Below, piece by piece: positions 1-10,772 of a stretch of DNA of 11,751 nt (position 1 is the stretch's first letter; every line of letters begins with the position of its first letter). The position numbers and the translations under genes were made by a program. The stretch is from a virus, in the UHGV virus genome UHGV-1581437; one strand, 5' to 3'. The notes beneath the pieces were generated by a model. That model had not been told where the DNA came from. It was given only the letters and a program-made list of their open reading frames with translations, and made no database searches.

Positions 1-1773
1 CCCGCCGCAATGCAGCTCAGTGACGCATTGGATACCGTCAGAGATATGTATAGAAAACAACTCCGAAAAGTACCGCCTTCCGCGCCAATCGGGTTCATCC
101 CGGAAAGCTGGAGAAAGGTTGTGATCACCCCCACCGGCATTGACCGAAAATATTACGAATTTTGCGTGCTGAATGAACTGAAGGGAGCCTTACGTTCAGG
201 TGACATCTGGGTAAAGGGGTCACGCCGCTACAGGAATTTCGATGATTATCTGATCCCGTCAGACGATTTTGAAAAATCACTCCGGGATAACCAGTTACCC
301 CTTGCTGTTCCGGCCGATTGCCATGAATACATCAAGAGCCGTTTGACGCTTCTTGCATCGCGTCTGGAAGAAGTTAACGCGATGGCGCTGGCCTGTGATT
401 TACCCGATGTTGATATATCGGATAAAGGCGTGAAAATTACCCCGCTGGATAACAGTGTCCCTTCAGCAGCATCCCCTTTTGGCGATCTGGTTTATGGCAT
501 GCTCCCTCACCCTAAAATTACTGAAATGCTGGATGAAGTGGACGGCTGGACTGGTTTTACCCGCCATTTCACACATCTCAAAAACAATCACGTCAGACCT
601 AAAGACAGAAAGTTGTTACTGACCACCATCCTGGCCGATGGTATCAACCTTGGACTGACAAAAATGGCCGAATCCTGTCCGGGAACGACCAAATCGTCAC
701 TCGAGGGCATTCAGGCCTGGTACATCAGGGATGAAACCTATTCAGCTGCGCTGGCCGAGTTGGTCAATGCCCAGAAAAAAAGCCCTCTGGCGGCATTCTG
801 GGGCGATGGAACAACGTCATCGTCTGATGGACAGAACTTTCGGGTGGGGAGTCACGGGCGTTATGCTGGTCAGGTCAATCTTAAATACGGTCAGGATCCA
901 GGCGTGCAGATTTATACGCATATTTCGGACCAATACAGCCCGTTTTACACCAAAGTTATCAGCCGCGTGCGGGATTCAACACACGTACTTGATGGTCTGC
1001 TGTACCACGAAACTGATCTGGAAATTACAGAGCATTACACCGACACAGCAGGTTTCACTGAGCATGTTTTTGCGCTAATGCATCTGCTCGGATTCGCTTT
1101 TGCGCCAAGGATCCGGGATCTTCATGACAAACGGCTGTTTATTCATGGAAAAGCTGAGTTGTATCAGGGGCTTCAGTCAATCATCTCGACAACCAGCCTG
1201 AATCTAAAGGAAATTGAAACCCACTGGCATGAGGTGCTGCGTCTGGCAAGTTCTATAAAGCAGGGAACGGTAACAGCATCACTGATGATGAAAAAGCTGG
1301 CAAGCTATCCGAAGCAGAATGGTCTGGCAAAGGCGCTGAGAGAGATTGGCCGCATCGAAAGGTCATTGTTTATGCTGGACTGGTTCAGGGATCCTTTACT
1401 GCGTCGACGCGTACAGGCGGGGCTGAATAAAGGTGAGGCTCGCAATGCCCTTGCGCGAGCGGTCTTTATGCATCGGCTGGGTGAAATCAGAGATCGGGGG
1501 CTGGAGAATCAGAGCTATCGAGCCAGCGGTCTGACGTTGCTGACTGCGGCGATCTCACTGCGGAATACGGTATATATAGAAAGAGCGATAGATTCTTTGA
1601 GACGAAAAGGGATCCCGATTAATGAGCAACTGATTACCCATCTGTCACCACTGGGATGGGAACATATCAACCTGAGCGGGGATTACGTCTGGAGAACGAA
1701 CCTCAAACTGGGACAGGGTAAATACCGCGCATTACGCTCAGTGAATAGTAATATGTACAAAAAACAGGCTTAG
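1..1773 (+). CDS. tnpA: Tn3-family DDE transposase TnpA, C-terminal ~590 aa (5' partial; frame is open through bases 1-9)
   Basis: ORF track 10..1773 (587 aa) with no stop in frame back to position 1. Size, composition and a stop codon (TAG 1771-1773) embedded in the terminal IR are typical of Tn3-family TnpA. Not Tn3 itself: the C-terminus differs from the Tn3 TnpA I recall. Confidence 0.88.
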
Positions 1774-2717: not shown

Positions 2718-3749
2718 CTAATCGCCATCTTCCAGCAGGCGCACCATTGCCCCTGTTTCACTATCCAGGTTACGGATATAGTTCATGACAATATTTACGT
2801 TGGTCCAGCCACCAGCTTGCATGATCTCCGGTATTGAAACTCCGGCGCGGGCCATATCTCGTGCGGCTCCGACACGGGCACTGTGTCCAGACCAGGCCAG
2901 GTACCTCTGGCCAGAGTCATCCTTAGCCCCGTAAATCAATCGGTGAGTTGCTTCAAAAATCCCTTCCAGGGCGCGAGTTGATAGCTGGCTGGTGGCAGAT
3001 GGCGCGGCAACACCATTTTTTCTGACACGGCAAAACAAGTAGTTATTCGGATCATCAGCTACACCAGAGACAGAAATCCATCGCTCGACCAGTTTAGTTA
3101 CCCCCAGGCTAAGTGCCTTCTCTACACCTGCGGTGCTAACCAGCGTTTTCGTTCTGCCAATATGGATTAACATTCTCCCACCGCCAGTACGCGAGATATC
3201 TTTAACCCTGATCCTGGCAATTTCGGCTATACGTAACAGGGTGTTATAAGCAATCCCCAGAAATGCTAGATTACGTATATCCTGGCAGCGATCGCTATTT
3301 TCCATGAGCGAACGAACCTGGTCGAAATCAGTGCGTTCGAACGCCAGCGCCTGTTTTGCACGTTCACCGGCATCAACGTTTTCTTTTCGGATCCGCCGCA
3401 TGACCAGTGAAACAGCATTGCTGTCACTTGGTCGTGGCAGCCCGGACCGACGATGAAGCATGTTTAGCTGGCCCAAATGTTGCTGGATAGTTTTCACTGC
3501 CAGACCGCGCGCCTGAAGATATAGAAGATAATCGCGAACATCTTCAGGTTCTGCGGGAAACCACTTCCGGTTATTCAACTTGCACCATGCCGCCCACGAC
3601 CGGCAAACGGACAGAAGCATTTTCCAGGTATGCTCAGAAAACGCCTGGCGATCCCTGAACATGTCCATCAGGTTCTTGCGAACCTCATCACTCGTTGCAT
3701 CGACCGGTAATGCAGGCAAATTTTGGTGTACGGTCAGTAAATTGGACAT
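2718..3749 (-). CDS. cre: Cre tyrosine site-specific recombinase
   Basis: 343-aa ORF starting MSNLLTVHQNLPALPVDATSDEVRKNLMDMFRDRQAFSEHTWKMLLSVCRSWAAWCKLNNRKWFPAEPEDVRDYLLYLQARGLAVKTIQQHLGQLNMLHRRSGLPRPSDSNAVSLVMRRIRKENVDAGERAKQALAFERTDFDQVRSLMENSDRCQDIRNLAFLGIAYNTLLRIAEIARIRVKDISRTGGGRMLIHIGRTKTLVSTAGVEKALSLGVTKLVERWISVSGVADDPNNYLFCRVRKNGVAAPSATSQLSTRALEGIFEATHRLIYGAKDDSGQRYLAWSGHSARVGAARDMARAGVSIPEIMQAGGWTNVNIVMNYIRNLDSETGAMVRLLEDGD, which I recognise as Cre; one position reads G where I recall D (RTGGGRM versus RTDGGRM). A loxP site lies ~410 bp upstream. Confidence 0.97.
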   Translation of the reverse strand: MSNLLTVHQNLPALPVDATSDEVRKNLMDMFRDRQAFSEHTWKMLLSVCRSWAAWCKLNNRKWFPAEPEDVRDYLLYLQARGLAVKTIQQHLGQLNMLHRRSGLPRPSDSNAVSLVMRRIRKENVDAGERAKQALAFERTDFDQVRSLMENSDRCQDIRNLAFLGIAYNTLLRIAEIARIRVKDISRTGGGRMLIHIGRTKTLVSTAGVEKALSLGVTKLVERWISVSGVADDPNNYLFCRVRKNGVAAPSATSQLSTRALEGIFEATHRLIYGAKDDSGQRYLAWSGHSARVGAARDMARAGVSIPEIMQAGGWTNVNIVMNYIRNLDSETGAMVRLLEDGD

Positions 3750-4236: not shown

Positions 4237-4253
4237 AGAATTATTAGAGCAAT
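4237..4253 (-). promoter_or_regulatory. C1 operator (Op99-type), minus orientation
   Basis: Minus strand reads ATTGCTCTAATAATTCT (15/17 to consensus ATTGCTCTAATAAATTT). Confidence 0.6.
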
Positions 4254-4313: not shown

Positions 4314-4340
4314 TTGACAATTGCTCTAATAAATTATAGT
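4314..4340 (+). promoter_or_regulatory. C1 operator (Op99-type) overlapping a sigma70-like promoter facing coi-c1
   Basis: TTGACA (4314-4319) followed directly by ATTGCTCTAATAAATTA (4320-4336, 16/17 to consensus) and TATAGT (4335-4340): a -35 and -10 with a 15-bp spacer fully occupied by the operator. Confidence 0.6.
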
Positions 4341-4574: not shown

Positions 4575-4784
4575 ATGGCTTTCATTCAACCAACCATCGA
4601 CGACGTTAGACATTGCTCTAACGCTTTATCTGTAGACCCTGCCGAAACCGACGCTGCCCGCGCCATTGCTGAACACTACTCAAAGATATCCAATCAGGAG
4701 TACCGCATCACCCAAGACGACCTGGATGACCTCACTGACACAATCGAATATCTCATGGCAACTAACCAGTTAGACTCACAATAA
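4575..4784 (+). CDS. coi: Coi (C1 inactivator), 69 aa
   Basis: 69-aa acidic ORF directly upstream of c1 and downstream of the operator cluster; GAGG lies 7 nt before the ATG. Size and position match P1 coi. Confidence 0.85.
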   Translation: MAFIQPTIDDVRHCSNALSVDPAETDAARAIAEHYSKISNQEYRITQDDLDDLTDTIEYLMATNQLDSQ

Positions 4785-4800
4785 ATGCACTAATAAATCT
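4784..4800 (+). promoter_or_regulatory. Weaker C1-operator-like 17-mer between coi and c1
   Basis: AATGCACTAATAAATCT (14/17 to consensus), followed by a TATAAT hexamer at 4820-4825. Confidence 0.35.
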
Positions 4801-4894: not shown

Positions 4895-5746
4895 ATGATA
4901 AATTATGTCTACGGCGAACAACTGTACCAGGAGTTCGTCAGCTTCAGGGATCTCTTTCTAAAAAAAGCTGTTGCACGCGCCCAACACGTTGATACAGCCA
5001 GCGACGGTCGTCCTGTACGCCCGGTTGTCGTTCTACCGTTCAAAGAAACTCACAGCATTCAGGCTGAAATTGATAAATGGACTTTAATGGCGCGGGAACT
5101 GGAACAGTACCCAGACCTCAATATCCCAAAGACTATTTTATATCCAGTGCCTAACATCCTTCGCGGTGTGCGCAAGGTTACAACTTATCAGACAGAAGCT
5201 GTGAACAGCGTCAACATGACCGCTGGCCGCATTATTCATCTGATTGATAAGGACATTCGCATCCAGAAAAGCGCAGGGATCAATGAGCACAGTGCGAAAT
5301 ACATAGAGAACCTGGAAGCAACAAAAGAGCTAATGAAGCAGTACCCGGAGGATGAAAAATTCCGTATGCGCGTACACGGCTTTAGCGAAACAATGCTGCG
5401 CGTCCATTACATTTCCAGTAGCCCTAACTACAATGATGGTAAATCAGTTAGTTACCATGTGCCGCTGTGTGGTGTGTTTATCTGCGATGAAACTCTCCGT
5501 GATGGAATCATCATCAACGGTGAATTCGAGAAAGCAAAATTTAGCCTTTATGACTCTATAGAACCGATCATCTGCGACCGCTGGCCGCAGGCAAAAATAT
5601 ATCGCCTGGCAGATATTGAAAATGTAAAAAAACAAATTGCCATCACTCGCGAAGAGAAAAAGGTCAAATCAGCCGCATCAGTTACGCGCAGCCGTAAAAC
5701 CAAGAAGGGGCAGCCAGTAAACGACAACCCCGAAAGCGCGCAATAA
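4895..5746 (+). CDS. c1: C1 repressor of lysis (primary immunity repressor), 283 aa
   Basis: 283-aa ORF with strong RBS (GGAGGAGG, 4883-4890). Length, position after coi and the surrounding operator array match P1 c1. Confidence 0.92.
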   Translation: MINYVYGEQLYQEFVSFRDLFLKKAVARAQHVDTASDGRPVRPVVVLPFKETHSIQAEIDKWTLMARELEQYPDLNIPKTILYPVPNILRGVRKVTTYQTEAVNSVNMTAGRIIHLIDKDIRIQKSAGINEHSAKYIENLEATKELMKQYPEDEKFRMRVHGFSETMLRVHYISSSPNYNDGKSVSYHVPLCGVFICDETLRDGIIINGEFEKAKFSLYDSIEPIICDRWPQAKIYRLADIENVKKQIAITREEKKVKSAASVTRSRKTKKGQPVNDNPESAQ

Positions 5747-5778: not shown

Positions 5779-6891
5779 TTATTCAGCCGCCACCGGTTTT
5801 AACAAGCCAGCATCGAGCAGTTTACGCGTCAACCACTGCTGGCCTTTACCCGTTAATTGAGGCGTCAACCGTATCTGGTAGCCATCTTCATCATCCAGCA
5901 CCACTTCTTTCACCGTGAAATACCCCGCGTTGATGTACTGCTGGAACGGCACATTTTTACGTCCACCGGACGCTATCAGGATGCCGTTCTCCCGTAACCA
6001 GACAAACAGCGCGTTTTGCTTAAGTCCAACAACCTTTGCAAAATTCCCAATCAGGATCCCTTTAGCTACTGATACCCGGTCGGCAAAATCGACTTTAGGA
6101 GCGGCGGCCACCAGCTGCTGATTTAGCTGGTGGGCTTTCTGTTCCAAAAGCTGCTTTTGTTCAGCCAGTTCGGCAGCCAGGCGCAGAGCTTCTGGAAGCG
6201 TCTGGGGGATTGCAACCGGTTGCTGTTCTTTTTGCCGGAAGTAGCTGTCTTCCAGTTTTTCAAAGAATGCCCATGCTTCATTTGTGTCCACGATCTTAGA
6301 CATGCGTGCAGCGCCGCGCTCTGTCCAGAGTGTAAGGCTTCTGGCGTTCTTACCAACAGAGTAACTTCCGGTTACTCTGTTCTTAAATTCTCTTAATTTT
6401 AAACCAGTTAGAAGAAAGTAATGCTTACCTTCTTCAAAGCGGTCAAGGTTGCGAGACAAATTGTTGCGAATATTGGCTTCATCGACCCCATACCCTCTAG
6501 CAAGAGTTTCGGTTGTCACGACACGTACTCCCTGCCATTCCAGAACGGGAATTTCATCCGGCTGATTCTGAACAACCACCAGTTCCGATTCCTGAACTGA
6601 AGGTGCATAAATTTTTTCTGATTTAACGTTAGTTGCTTTCATTCTGTGTGCCTCCTTGCGTGCTTCGGCTGCGACGGTTGCGTAATTCAGATGACCCTGT
6701 TCGAGCAGGTATTCACGGATATCGGTTAGCAGAATGCGGTGAACCGCGTGTTTGTCCTTTCTCCGGTAAAGTTGTTTGGTGATCATGAAGTAGTTGGCAA
6801 TAACGCCCGGTATATCCCTGGTACTGATACAGGCAGTGTGCTGTTCAATTGCCTCGATCATCTCTTCACGGGTGACTAATGACGTTCTCAT
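5779..6891 (-). CDS. Ant-like antirepressor (370 aa) with an ORF6N/Bro-N-like central domain and a KilAC-type C-terminal domain; in-frame internal start at 6642 would give a 287-aa isoform
   Basis: Strong RBS (minus AGGAGGG 4 nt before ATG). Central segment LEWQGVRVVTTETLARGYGVDEANIRNNLSRNLDRFEEGKHYFLLTG...LWTERGA...FFEKLEDSYF has the ORF6N pattern; the C-terminus (VDFADRVSVAKGILIGNFAKVVGLKQNALFVWLRENGIL...) is KilAC-like. Domain calls are from motif memory, not a search. Confidence 0.85.
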   Translation of the reverse strand: MRTSLVTREEMIEAIEQHTACISTRDIPGVIANYFMITKQLYRRKDKHAVHRILLTDIREYLLEQGHLNYATVAAEARKEAHRMKATNVKSEKIYAPSVQESELVVVQNQPDEIPVLEWQGVRVVTTETLARGYGVDEANIRNNLSRNLDRFEEGKHYFLLTGLKLREFKNRVTGSYSVGKNARSLTLWTERGAARMSKIVDTNEAWAFFEKLEDSYFRQKEQQPVAIPQTLPEALRLAAELAEQKQLLEQKAHQLNQQLVAAAPKVDFADRVSVAKGILIGNFAKVVGLKQNALFVWLRENGILIASGGRKNVPFQQYINAGYFTVKEVVLDDEDGYQIRLTPQLTGKGQQWLTRKLLDAGLLKPVAAE

Positions 6892-7109
6892 AGTCCCTCC
6901 TGAGCAGAAGCGTTAACAGGGAGGCACCAGTAACTGAGAGAATTGCGCGAATCGGTAGAAAAGCGGGCAGAGAAAATACAGGGAGCATCCGGAAGCTGAG
7001 AACGTGCCTCATCTTCTGTCGGTGCAATAACGAAGTGATAGTGACGTTTTTGGCAGGAGTAAAAGCGCCAGATAAATTCAGGATGAGCAGGGGTAGGGAT
7101 AGTAGCCAC
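6888..7109 (-). CDS. Icd-like small protein (73 aa) translationally coupled to the Ant-like gene
   Basis: GTG start 8 nt downstream of a consensus SD (minus AAGGAGG, plus 7118-7124). Its stop overlaps the ant ATG as ATGA (6888-6891). Size and overlap mirror P1 icd-ant1 (73-codon icd, as I recall). Confidence 0.55.
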   Translation of the reverse strand: MATIPTPAHPEFIWRFYSCQKRHYHFVIAPTEDEARSQLPDAPCIFSARFSTDSRNSLSYWCLPVNASAQEGL

Positions 7110-7117
7110 AATGGCAG

Positions 7118-7141
7118 CCTCCTTTTGCTAATTTAAGGAGC
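7118..7141 (-). promoter_or_regulatory. RBS-sequestering hairpin for the Icd-like ORF
   Basis: Minus strand GCTCCTT-AAATTAGCAA-AAGGAGGC: an upstream anti-SD (CTCCTT) can pair with the SD (AAGGAG) of the small ORF. Confidence 0.4.
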
Positions 7142-7293
7142 TACCGCGTGAGGTCTCAATCTCAATGGCGGTAGCACTGACTGGGTTGAGACTACCGGCG
7201 CAAAAGGGAACCGGCCTGCCTTTCGGCAGCCCAGCCAGCACTACCATTGATCTCTGAGCTAAACGCTACGTATGGCTGTGCGATGGCATGACA

Positions 7294-7322
7294 CAAAAAA
7301 AGACGCTTTTGGCGTCTGTGTC
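7294..7322 (-). terminator. Strong rho-independent terminator on the minus strand inside the module leader
   Basis: Minus strand GACAC-AGACGC-CAAAA-GCGTCT-TTTTTTT-GTGTC: GC-rich stem followed by seven T, with an outer GACAC/GTGTC clamp. Confidence 0.6.
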
Positions 7323-7430
7323 GCCTTTTGCATTATCCGGGGTCTCAATCCCGGCACCCGTTTTACTGAGGTGCCTGATAAGCATAAACCGAAAATGCCT
7401 CAAGGCGCAAGAGGTCAGGTTCAATGTAAC
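7294..7430 (-). ncRNA. Candidate C4-like antisense regulatory RNA (about 120-135 nt) running from the operator-overlapped promoter to the terminator
   Basis: Promoter-like elements on the minus strand (TTGTGT, 17-bp spacer, TACATT) next to a C1-operator-like site. Hairpin CCGGG-AUUGAGAC-CCCGG (plus 7337-7354). Terminator at 7294-7322. The loop is complementary to a downstream leader site. No protein-coding potential. Confidence 0.35.
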
Positions 7431-7448: not shown

Positions 7449-7465
7449 CAATTTATTAGAGCAAA
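7449..7465 (-). promoter_or_regulatory. C1-operator-like 17-mer at the head of the sRNA/icd-like/ant-like module
   Basis: Minus strand TTTGCTCTAATAAATTG (15/17 to consensus), starting 4 nt after the pacB stop and overlapping the candidate promoter. Confidence 0.55.
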
Positions 7466-7468
7466 TAT

Positions 7469-8953
7469 TCATTCATTAAGCCATGCCAGAGCTTCATCAA
7501 CCTGCGCTTCGTCTTCGACGCTAAGCACTTCGTCCTGGGGAACATAATCCGCCAGCATAGCGAAACAATATGTATCCCAATGGTCTGGTGAGTGCAGGTT
7601 GAGTTTTTTCTTCATATCCTCCTTACTCATCACCTTCCATTGACCTGCGGAGTTAATCCCTACAGGGATTTTCGACGCTTCCTCAATAGTTTCATTACCC
7701 TTATCCAGTCTCATACGACCAGATTTTACGGCCTCTGCGGCTTGAACGTTGGCATAAGCACGTTTATCAAAGTACAGGCTCTTATCTTCACGGCTATGCA
7801 TCTTTTTACCCCAGCGTATACGCTGTACGGTAATACCATAATACTCGTACATCAGATCCGCCGTTGCTTTACCCAGGCCATCGCCGTCTATCGCTATGGT
7901 GATATTTGGGAATCGCTCAGGATTACATTCTGCGAAAATTTTGGCGGCAAGCTGCGTTTCTGTAACGTCTGTGTATTCCAGCATTCGATAGTTGATTACA
8001 CGGCGTTTATTTCGCTGGCCGGACACCATCATGATATTGATAACGGACTTATCCCGTCCCGTACCACCAGCAACGTCCACACATGCAAGCCAGCCCCATC
8101 CTTTTGCAATCTTGACTTTCCGCCGCGTTGCACGTTCAACCTCATCACGTCCAAGAAGGAAGCCATCCTGTGATTTAGGGAATAGGCCGCGTACCTTAAT
8201 CATGTACATAGGGTTATCACGCCCGCCGTACTCCGCCAGCTTCATTTTGATAAATGCTGGCGTTACCAACGGTGATTCCTCACTGTTAAGCGTGATCGCC
8301 GTATAAACGCCATCAGGGTTACCAGGACGCTTGGCCAGTTTATGGTGTGTATCGTAGAAATAGCCGCTTGGGCGTGTAGGCTGTGACAGCAATAAGATGC
8401 GGTTATCCTGTCCGGTAAGAGCACCGGTGATGATACCGAAAGCTCTATCACTGACACCGGAGGCTTCATCGATAATATACAGAAGATGATCTGCGTGTTC
8501 ACCGGCGAGAGCTTCTTCACTTCCCAGACGAAAGCCCTTCGGTACTACAGTCCATACACCTTTACCAGTAATCTCATAGAAAGCGGTTTCTGTCAGAACA
8601 AAATAATCAGCAAGCCATGGGAAACGGCTGGTGGCAGTAGCCCAGTTTATCTTGATGTACTTGAATATACCGGTCATTACCTGCTGAATTTTGTTCGCAA
8701 CGATAATGGCACGGGCACCTGGATACATGATTATGAACAACATGATCATGATAGAAGTCATGTCTGATTTCCCGGTACCGTGACCAGACGAAACAGATGT
8801 CTTGCTACCCTGTTCCTGCACAGACTCAATAATCAGATCCTGCTGCCAGGTAGGTGTTTTGCCGAACAAAACATCAGCGGCCGCAATCCAGTCATAACGA
8901 TATAGCGCCACCAGCTCGCGCCAACGTGGATCCGTTACGCAACTTCTGGCCAT
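7469..8953 (-). CDS. pacB: Terminase large subunit PacB (494 aa)
   Basis: 494-aa ORF with a Walker A-like motif (SSGHGTGKS) and acidic nuclease-type motifs. Its ATG overlaps the pacA stop (TAATG). Size and order match P1 pacB. Confidence 0.92.
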
Positions 8954-10755: not shown

Positions 10756-10772
10756 CAATACATTAGAGCAAT
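10756..10772 (-). promoter_or_regulatory. C1-operator-like 17-mer overlapping the lpa promoter
   Basis: Minus strand ATTGCTCTAATGTATTG (13/17 to consensus). TTGCTC inside the operator serves as -35, then a 17-bp spacer, then TTTAAT as -10, all upstream of lpa. Confidence 0.6.

Follow-up and report, generated by a model that had tools for sequence, protein, structure and literature searches.

In bacteriophages P1 and P7, the immI region is laid out as a1 b1 - c4 - a2 b2 - icd - ant1/2. The P1 record annotates a1, b1, c4, a2, b2, icd and ant in that order, lists C4 as a separate 77-nt RNA and states that C4 represses icd-ant. The immI C4 of both phages reportedly works by an antisense mechanism. 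C4 processing by RNase P and Rho polarity are features of this system. Here, we compare with these regions a minus-strand cassette in an 11,751-nt stretch of UHGV virus genome UHGV-1581437 (the window, below). The cassette has the element order and the C4 fold of P1/P7 immI. The recognition elements a' and b' occupy the same positions in the RNA, a2 follows just after C4, b2 lies on the Shine-Dalgarno sequence of icd, icd and an antirepressor gene come downstream, and an operator-like site stands where the C1 operator is annotated in P1/P7. Unlike immI, the cassette is located between pacB and c1 and is additional to a canonical immI, its antirepressor has ORF6N and KilAC domains, and its upstream element and C4 resemble those of lambdoid Stx phages, with ~69% identity across the 300 nt of the RNA region, more closely than those of P1/P7. 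We conclude that the window very probably carries an immI-type C4 antisense-RNA immunity cassette of a P1-like phage-plasmid. The type of system is well known; what is new here is an extra copy with its own recognition code.

Similar arrangements are known under other names. An 'IsrK-C4 immunity system' common to P4, P1, P7 and N15 has already been described (Barquist et al., PMC3632133), and the P4 and N15 elements are described as structural homologues of IsrK and C4 (PMC4825925, PMC3632133). Going by these literature descriptions, seqA - CI RNA - seqC of P4 and the CB RNA of N15 place a processed small RNA between two same-sense copies of its target, as in the window, but the outcome in P4 is premature transcription termination of replication genes and not a translational block of icd-ant. 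The isrK-orf45-anrP locus of the Salmonella prophage Gifsy-1 has an IsrK RNA with a terminator, then the C4-like RNA STnc1160 and an antirepressor, as in the window. Upstream of anrP, the Rfam models score 79 bits for isrK and 69 bits for C4, a1/a'/a2 and b1/b'/b2 take the same positions as in the window, and an open reading frame (ORF) starts from an AUG in the C4 5' arm. Gifsy-1 differs in having no icd gene, so that the antirepressor follows directly, and in its code, UUGGCGU/AUCACCG. The published mechanism of Gifsy-1 stresses activation by short IsrK, which acts in trans on translation of the antirepressor anrP via orf45 (Hershko-Shalev et al. 2016, PMC4825925), rather than repression by a processed C4. 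That study remarked on the similarity with P4 seqA/CI and on the processed RNA STnc1160; Hfq binding of isrK, accumulation of the short RNA and trans activation have been shown only for Gifsy-1 (PMC4825925).

Anatomy of the minus-strand cassette

An Rfam scan at curated gathering thresholds gives two adjoining minus-strand matches, C4 and isrK. The C4 match (RF01695, 7164-7251) spans the full model (1-87/87) and scores 75 bits against a gathering threshold of 45 (E = 1.5e-13). In isolation, the 88-nt C4 folds with a minimum free energy (MFE) of -46.4 kcal/mol (z = -5.6), and both the MFE and the centroid structure match the Rfam consensus, in which a long closing stem surrounds two hairpins. 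The loop of C4 hairpin 2 presents the b' recognition element CCUUUUGC (7200-7207), and the single-stranded stretch between this hairpin and the closing stem presents a', GUCUCAA (7186-7192). As in other members of the family, a' and b' are complementary to a2 and b2 at the icd ribosome-binding region, with 7-bp and 8-bp matches. The initial annotation of this DNA had seen a resemblance to the a/b sites of P1/P7 C4 RNA. The likeness is stronger than was claimed, since the region is a true C4 homologue by its Rfam score and its P1 site layout.

The isrK match (RF01394, 7296-7374, minus strand) scores 58.2 bits against a threshold of 50 and has the features of the family, namely two 5' hairpins, of which hairpin 2 is weak, a terminator hairpin and a U tract. 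The a1 site UUGAGAC (7342-7348) lies in the loop of hairpin 2, CCGGG-AUUGAGAC-CCCGG (7337-7354, minus strand CCGGGAUUGAGACCCCGG), and the b1 site GCAAAAGG (7324-7331) follows in the leader. The terminator-like hairpin proposed previously is found by a terminator scan as a predicted intrinsic terminator, AGACGC-CAAAA-GCGUCU followed by U7 (7294-7317), within the Rfam isrK model. The c4-a1b1 model (RF03163) gives 22.3 bits at 7334-7387, below its threshold of 46.7, which P1, P7, D6 and Gifsy-1 pass. In P1, the a1b1 element matches c4-a1b1, and the isrK model gives a sub-threshold match over the same two hairpins and terminator-like hairpin; therefore, both families describe the same element. The P1 counterpart of the terminator has a different stem sequence from that at 7294-7317. 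From its sequence, the upstream element of the window appears functionally equivalent to c4-a1b1, with a1 and b1 present and co-varying, but it is of the isrK sequence type. The window, all 9 phage loci scanned and Gifsy-1 have an isrK element directly before a C4-like RNA, with an antirepressor gene following; in the phage loci, an isrK or a1b1 element precedes each C4 by ~25 nt. The spacer between terminator and C4 (7252-7295, minus strand) is ~21 nt longer (CCAUACGUAGCGUUUAGCUCAGAG) than in 673R5-type and Stx-phage modules. This ~45-nt spacer contains a tRNA-D-arm-like AGCUCAG, and ARAGORN finds no tRNA in it.

Downstream of C4, the a2 target UUGAGAC (7153-7159) begins a few nucleotides past the C4 3' end. 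The b2 target GCAAAAGG (7121-7128) overlaps the icd Shine-Dalgarno sequence AAGGAGG (7118-7124), which is 9 nt upstream of the icd start codon, so that the two together occupy 7118-7128. The icd-like gene (6888-7109, minus strand; 73 aa) has 73% identity to P1 Icd and matches NCBIfam phage_ICD_like. It starts with GUG at 7109, where relatives have AUG at the same position. The antirepressor gene (5779-6891, minus strand; 370 aa) overlaps the icd stop codon, matches Pfam ORF6N and ANT/KilAC and is annotated as ant in RCS47. An icd-like gene followed by an ANT/KilAC gene is the content expected downstream of a C4, as judged from the predicted products. The second set of sites, b1, b' and b2 (GCAAAAGG/CCUUUUGC), which covers the ribosome-binding site, had been missed previously. 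All the sequence elements that had been listed are present on the minus strand, including GUCUCAACCC at 7183-7192, AUUGAGAUUGAGAC at 7153-7166, and GCUACCGC and GCGGUAGC at 7168-7175 and 7140-7147.

A 39-codon ORF (7128-7247, minus strand), 'ash family protein' in RefSeq, overlaps C4. Its start is an AUG that is conserved in the 5' arm of C4; its UAG stop abuts b2 and leaves 18 nt to icd. In seven modules (673R5_2nd, Stx2_F039, phiP27, Stx2a_1447, L022, L066 and L068) the frame from this AUG runs in frame into the downstream start codon; in other modules it stops 2-33 nt before it.

Co-variation and specificity of the recognition sites

We sampled 80 loci encoding Icd relatives from IMG/VR and 10 phage loci, and compared 36 distinct modules (P1, P7, D6, Stx phages, a Yersinia phage and IMG/VR contigs), comprising 23 isrK-type and 13 canonical P1-type modules. 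The two types were aligned separately, as a joint 43-module alignment is out of register at a' and a2 of the canonical rows. Across the 36 modules, overall pairing is 98-100% for both site sets, against 23-55% in slid controls. In the isrK-type modules, pairing of a1:a' and b1:b' taken together is 100%, 12 of the 15 pairs show changes on both sides, and covariation is 0.66 against 0.19 in shuffles (0/500; slid controls 32-54%). Taken singly, a1:a' is 100% paired with double changes at 6 of its 7 positions, and b1:b' is 100% paired with 6 of its 8 positions changed on both sides. For a':a2 and b':b2 in the same 23 modules, pairing is 98%, covariation is 0.60 and 10 of the 15 pairs show compensatory changes. 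Two rows, where MAFFT misplaces a2 or b2 lies on the start codon, account for the few unpaired cells. In the 13 canonical modules, both site sets are 100% paired, and the alignment has 94% mean column identity with its variation concentrated in the sites. In all of 11 phages, with 9 a codes and 9 b codes, the C4 core has its two best complementary matches in the flanking sequence at the same positions. The a2 site co-varies with a', and b2 co-varies with b'. In almost every homologue, b2 falls on the Shine-Dalgarno sequence. The earlier suggestion that loop-target complementarity sets specificity agrees with these data, as recognition sequences differ between phages with compensating changes.

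Published genetics fall on the same pairs. When +1 is set to the first base of the Rfam isrK match (A34316), G28 and G31 of Gifsy-1 are in a1 (UUGGCGU), and C159 and C162 are in a' (ACGCCAA). Single mutations at G28, G31, C159 and C162 activate translation, and the pairs G28A/C162U and G31A/C159U restore repression (PMC4825925). These compensatory mutants fall exactly on a1:a' pairs.

Two further proposals of the initial annotation hold in part. The tandem motif at 7153-7166 was taken as a site; its copy at 7153-7159 is the a2 target, but the UUGAGAU half immediately upstream of a2 (7159-7165) does not co-vary and is not a site, being unchanged in relatives whose a', a1 and a2 are of the GGAAC type. 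Of the two mutually exclusive stems that were proposed, that of GCUACCGC, in the C4 3' arm, with GCGGUAGC is 95.7% paired in the 23 homologues, with compensatory change in 4 pairs. This alternative hairpin (7140-7175) puts a2 in its loop and is mutually exclusive with the C4 closing stem. The CGGUAG/CUACCG stem, however, is not conserved in homologues and is specific to the sequence type of the window.

Predicted pairing energies agree with this layout and assign a different partner to the upstream RNA. In RNAduplex, with z taken against shuffles, the duplex of the C4 core and the leader has -29.7 kcal/mol (z = -2.6), and that of the C4 core and the IsrK-like RNA has -35.6 kcal/mol (z = -3.2). 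The latter is the strongest interaction and uses b1:b' and the pairing of GGG(A)UUGAGAC with GUCUCAACCC. RNAduplex thus recovers the very ~10-bp duplex with one bulged A that had been proposed, but the roles are swapped. The segment 7183-7192, regarded as the mRNA target in the leader, is inside the C4 RNA and is the a' element; the hairpin RNA regarded as an antisense sRNA is the IsrK/a1b1-type element and carries a copy of the target. Its complementarity to the icd leader is no greater than chance (z = -0.6), as expected since both are same-sense. Since the IsrK-like RNA pairs with the C4 core and not with the icd leader, the upstream RNA targets C4 and not the mRNA. At full length, C4 with the IsrK-like RNA is indistinguishable from shuffles in RNAduplex (z = -1.1). 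The observation is therefore confirmed and its interpretation partly supported, being right in the family and wrong in the assignment of roles.

The recognition code of the window has the layout of the P1 and P7 codes with different letters: P1 has UUGACAG/GUUAGUG, P7 has UUAGCAG/GAUUGUG and the window has UUGAGAC/GCAAAAGG. In a 15x15 matrix of C4 cores against leaders (RNAduplex), the cognate duplex is the most stable in nearly every row, and the window C4 reaches -25.8 kcal/mol on its own leader against -12 to -16 kcal/mol on P1-type leaders. Close relatives of the cassette carry GAGAC, GGAAC or GGCCU at a and GCAAAAGG, GUCAAAGG or GUCUAAGG at b, and all four combinations of the first two a with the first two b alleles occur in the pacB-c1 cassette. 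The canonical locus has at least 2 x 5 a/b alleles. In the best explanation, the operon that a given C4 recognises is set by the a/b code of 7+8 nt. Contigs with a window-type cassette also bear a canonical module coded UUGACAG/GUACAUG (L042 with L079, L051 with L077). As read from these sequences, the window code is distinct from those of P1, P7 and the canonical immI module on the same contigs; with different codes on the same contigs, the two circuits in one genome look orthogonal. Other multi-copy arrangements occur as well. Contig IMGVR_UViG_651053023_000001 has two canonical-type modules a few kb apart (L067 and L078) that share the a code UUAGCAG and have different b codes, ACUUACG and GUACAUG, and locus L020 has two C4 copies ~1.5 kb apart.

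Proposed mechanism and competing accounts

From this anatomy, we infer the following sequence of events. A single minus-strand transcript would start at ~7374, the 5' end of the Rfam isrK match, downstream of the C1 operator-like site. The putative promoter, read from the sequence, consists of TTGCGC (7405-7410), an 18-nt spacer and TATGCT (7381-7386), on the minus strand at 7381-7410, and its hexamers are conserved in relatives. The first product would be the IsrK-like leader, with a1 in a hairpin loop and b1 behind it, followed by the intrinsic terminator. Read-through RNA would hold C4, which would be excised as a stable small RNA exposing b' in its hairpin loop and a' as a single strand. 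These elements would pair with a2 and b2 on the icd-ant mRNA, making C4 the repressor. Since b2 overlaps the Shine-Dalgarno sequence, b':b2 pairing, aided by a':a2, would block the icd ribosome-binding site and thereby antirepressor expression. With the antirepressor off, C1 repression would stay intact. In the leader, a1 and b1 would be same-sense mimics of the target that pair with C4 rather than with the mRNA. Most likely, the leader is a decoy or anti-antisense that works in cis while part of the precursor and in trans when terminated as a short RNA. In addition, a1 and b1 may couple the occupancy or level of C4 to termination at 7294-7317, as blocking b1 in our modelling raises the predicted terminator probability from 0.61 to 0.98 in the window.

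Several observations speak against parts of this scheme. As had been proposed, AUUGAGAC is the exposed loop of the a1 hairpin when the 83-nt upstream RNA is folded alone, in the MFE and centroid structures alike, but this hairpin is marginal, with a GGG/CCC stem of 3-5 bp and a z of only -1.8, and it is not formed in the MFE of the whole 301-nt transcript, where other pairings replace it. In these models, the a1 hairpin is backed more by the family model than by thermodynamics. Full-length C4 pairs with the leader no better than shuffles do (z = -0.4), and only the exposed core does. The promoter matches the consensus weakly and is not called by a promoter tool scan. The effect of blocking b1 on the terminator is seen in only ~9 of the 14 elements modelled. 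Even in P1, the function of a1/b1 is annotated only as 'putative'. In Gifsy-1, activation was explained via orf45, which overlaps the C4-like RNA, and not by titration of a processed C4, and constitutive co-expression of orf45/STnc1160 made IsrK-mediated growth arrest stronger, not weaker (PMC4825925).

The Gifsy-1 work leads to a different account, close to that of the initial annotation, in which the terminated upstream RNA is the main trans regulator. By pairing with the downstream part of the read-through form of its own transcript, it would open a translationally silent fold and activate translation, and the region shaped like C4 would be only mRNA structure plus an upstream ORF, with no separate repressor RNA. 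We consider this possible but doubtful as a full explanation. It draws on the activation of anrP by IsrK in trans via orf45 (PMC4825925), on the compensatory mutants in a1:a', on an equivalent ORF in the window, with 39 codons from a start within the 5' arm of C4, and on the duplex of the C4 core with the IsrK-like RNA being the strongest. However, it leaves the co-variation of a2/b2 with a'/b' unexplained, and the IsrK-like RNA is same-sense to a2/b2 without complementarity to them. Moreover, the C4 fold is conserved as a discrete unit, which in P1 is a separate RNA, and the ORF is cut to 14 codons in P1 and to 8 in a Yersinia phage. This account complements repression by C4 rather than excluding it. 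A control of the P4 type is somewhat unlikely. Here, C4 would act on nascent a1/b1 and a2/b2 mainly to cause premature termination, at 7294-7317 and/or through Rho within icd, and the ribosome block would be secondary. P4 CI RNA acts in this way with seqA and seqC, the structural equivalents of IsrK and of the target (PMC4825925, PMC3632133), a GGCG/CGCC pairing in competition with the terminator stem directly adjoins b1, and the response to b1 blocking is similar in those ~9 of 14 homologues. In contrast, b2 on the Shine-Dalgarno sequence of almost every homologue points to translation, the terminator of several homologues is already at ~1.0 without blocking, and the model is thermodynamic and not co-transcriptional. 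Because the modelling is inconsistent, we keep the b1-driven terminator/anti-terminator switch only as a rival.

Conservation of the region could also reflect a small 'Ash family' protein encoded at 7128-7247, to which the motifs would be incidental. The ORF is an annotated RefSeq coding sequence and matches Pfam Phage_ASH with 29.1 bits against a threshold of 26, but among homologues it has 8, 14, 31, 37, 39 or 41 codons or reads through, the variation is concentrated in the a/b sites and compensated at two places outside the ORF, and the RNA structure model is far above its threshold. We regard this account as very improbable; with an ORF of such varying length, a conserved small protein encoded across C4 was rejected. 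From these comparisons, the 39-codon ORF is probably not a conserved protein; the Phage_ASH family may largely be translated C4/CI RNA, and the window ORF corresponds to Gifsy-1 orf45. Finally, the triple motif might be a chance repeat or a functionless relic of local duplication. Its recurrence, as previously noted, is real: GTCTCAA or its complement occurs four times in 11.7 kb, with three of the four within 200 nt. In dinucleotide shuffles of 7100-7400, a single 7-mer arrangement X..rc(X)..X arises in ~2% of cases, and the adjacent UUGAGAU half-copy resembles a duplication relic, but two independent triples, as here for UUGAGAC and GCAAAAGG, arise in 6 of 20,000. Because both sets co-vary across the 36 modules, a chance repeat is refuted, and we give this account practically no weight. 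We take the comparative evidence, three copies changing together in aligned sequences, as decisive and much stronger than statistics within the window.

Genomic setting and implications

The 700 bases around the cassette have 99-100% identity to P1-like phage-plasmids (phage JL22 and many E. coli plasmids) and 95% identity to RCS47 and D6. In RCS47, the gene order is pacA, pacB, the cassette region and ant, then c1-coi-imcB in the opposite direction, and the window has the same arrangement, with pacB at 7469-8953 and c1 at 4895-5746. In P1, c1 directly follows pacB, and the c4-icd-ant1 operon is elsewhere. JL22, RCS47, 673R5, D6 and Ro157c2YLVW each have the canonical c4-icd-ant1 region plus the pacB-c1 cassette; therefore, the cassette of the window is a second immI-like cassette. 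Earlier papers mention its presence in passing, as an ant insert between pacB and c1 (PMC6906374) and, for D6-like plasmids, as a second region with an antisense RNA and icd (PMC6799933). One 100%-identical match, NZ_CP097001, has the whole region on an E. coli chromosome and not on a plasmid.

Five C1-operator-like matches to the P1 consensus ATTGCTCTAATAAATTT (<=3 mismatches) occur in the window against 0.05 expected, at 4237-4253 (-), 4320-4336 (+), 4784-4800 (+), 7449-7465 (-) and 10756-10772 (-). They lie upstream of coi/c1, the cassette and lpa, which fits a P1-type repressor network. The site at 7449-7465 (TTTGCTCTAATAAATTG, 2 mismatches) directly follows the stop codon of pacB, and the leader RNA would start ~75 nt downstream of it. 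Together with the weak promoter, which ends 7 nt before 7374, it suggests C1 control as in P1. At loci L086, L088 and L092, the leader, Shine-Dalgarno sequence and first codons (GGAGGCUGCCAUUAUGGCUACUAUCCC, MATIP...; 7107-7131, minus strand) are common to icd and a Stx-phage gene, a ~215-aa regulatory/antirepressor gene. This sharing suggests that the cassette is chimeric, with an isrK-C4 leader of lambdoid kind joined to an icd of the P1 type. Beyond c1, the window holds a Tn3-family transposase (DDE_Tnp_Tn3, 10-1773, plus strand) and a 343-aa, Cre-sized tyrosine recombinase (2718-3749, minus strand).

Taken together, our results allow a tentative reading that goes further than the cassette itself. 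A P1-like phage-plasmid might carry two orthogonal C4 circuits, each gating its own antirepressor. The a (7-nt) and b (8-nt) 'digits', each exchangeable without the other, might form a combinatorial heteroimmunity barcode, and the terminated IsrK-like leader might be a diffusible decoy that lets an incoming or induced phage with the same code titrate the resident C4. If true, this joint barcode/decoy reading would unify the repressor model of P1 and the activator model of Gifsy-1.

Public records label the region only as hypothetical proteins or 'ash family protein', and this annotation is corrected here. The same RNA architecture has been treated under different names in three literatures, those of P1/P7 c4, P4 seqA/CI and Salmonella IsrK, which are joined by this comparison. 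Three points deserve the attention of specialists: how diverse the alleles are, that one genome can hold two modules that look orthogonal, and that the models for P1 and Gifsy-1 can be reconciled. From the allele table, many P1-like elements carry two independent antirepressor switches, and immunity or heteroimmunity between any two P1-like elements can be predicted. The region is very probably an RNA switch that would decide the dormancy of an E. coli phage-plasmid of wide distribution, and resistance genes are frequent on plasmids of this kind.

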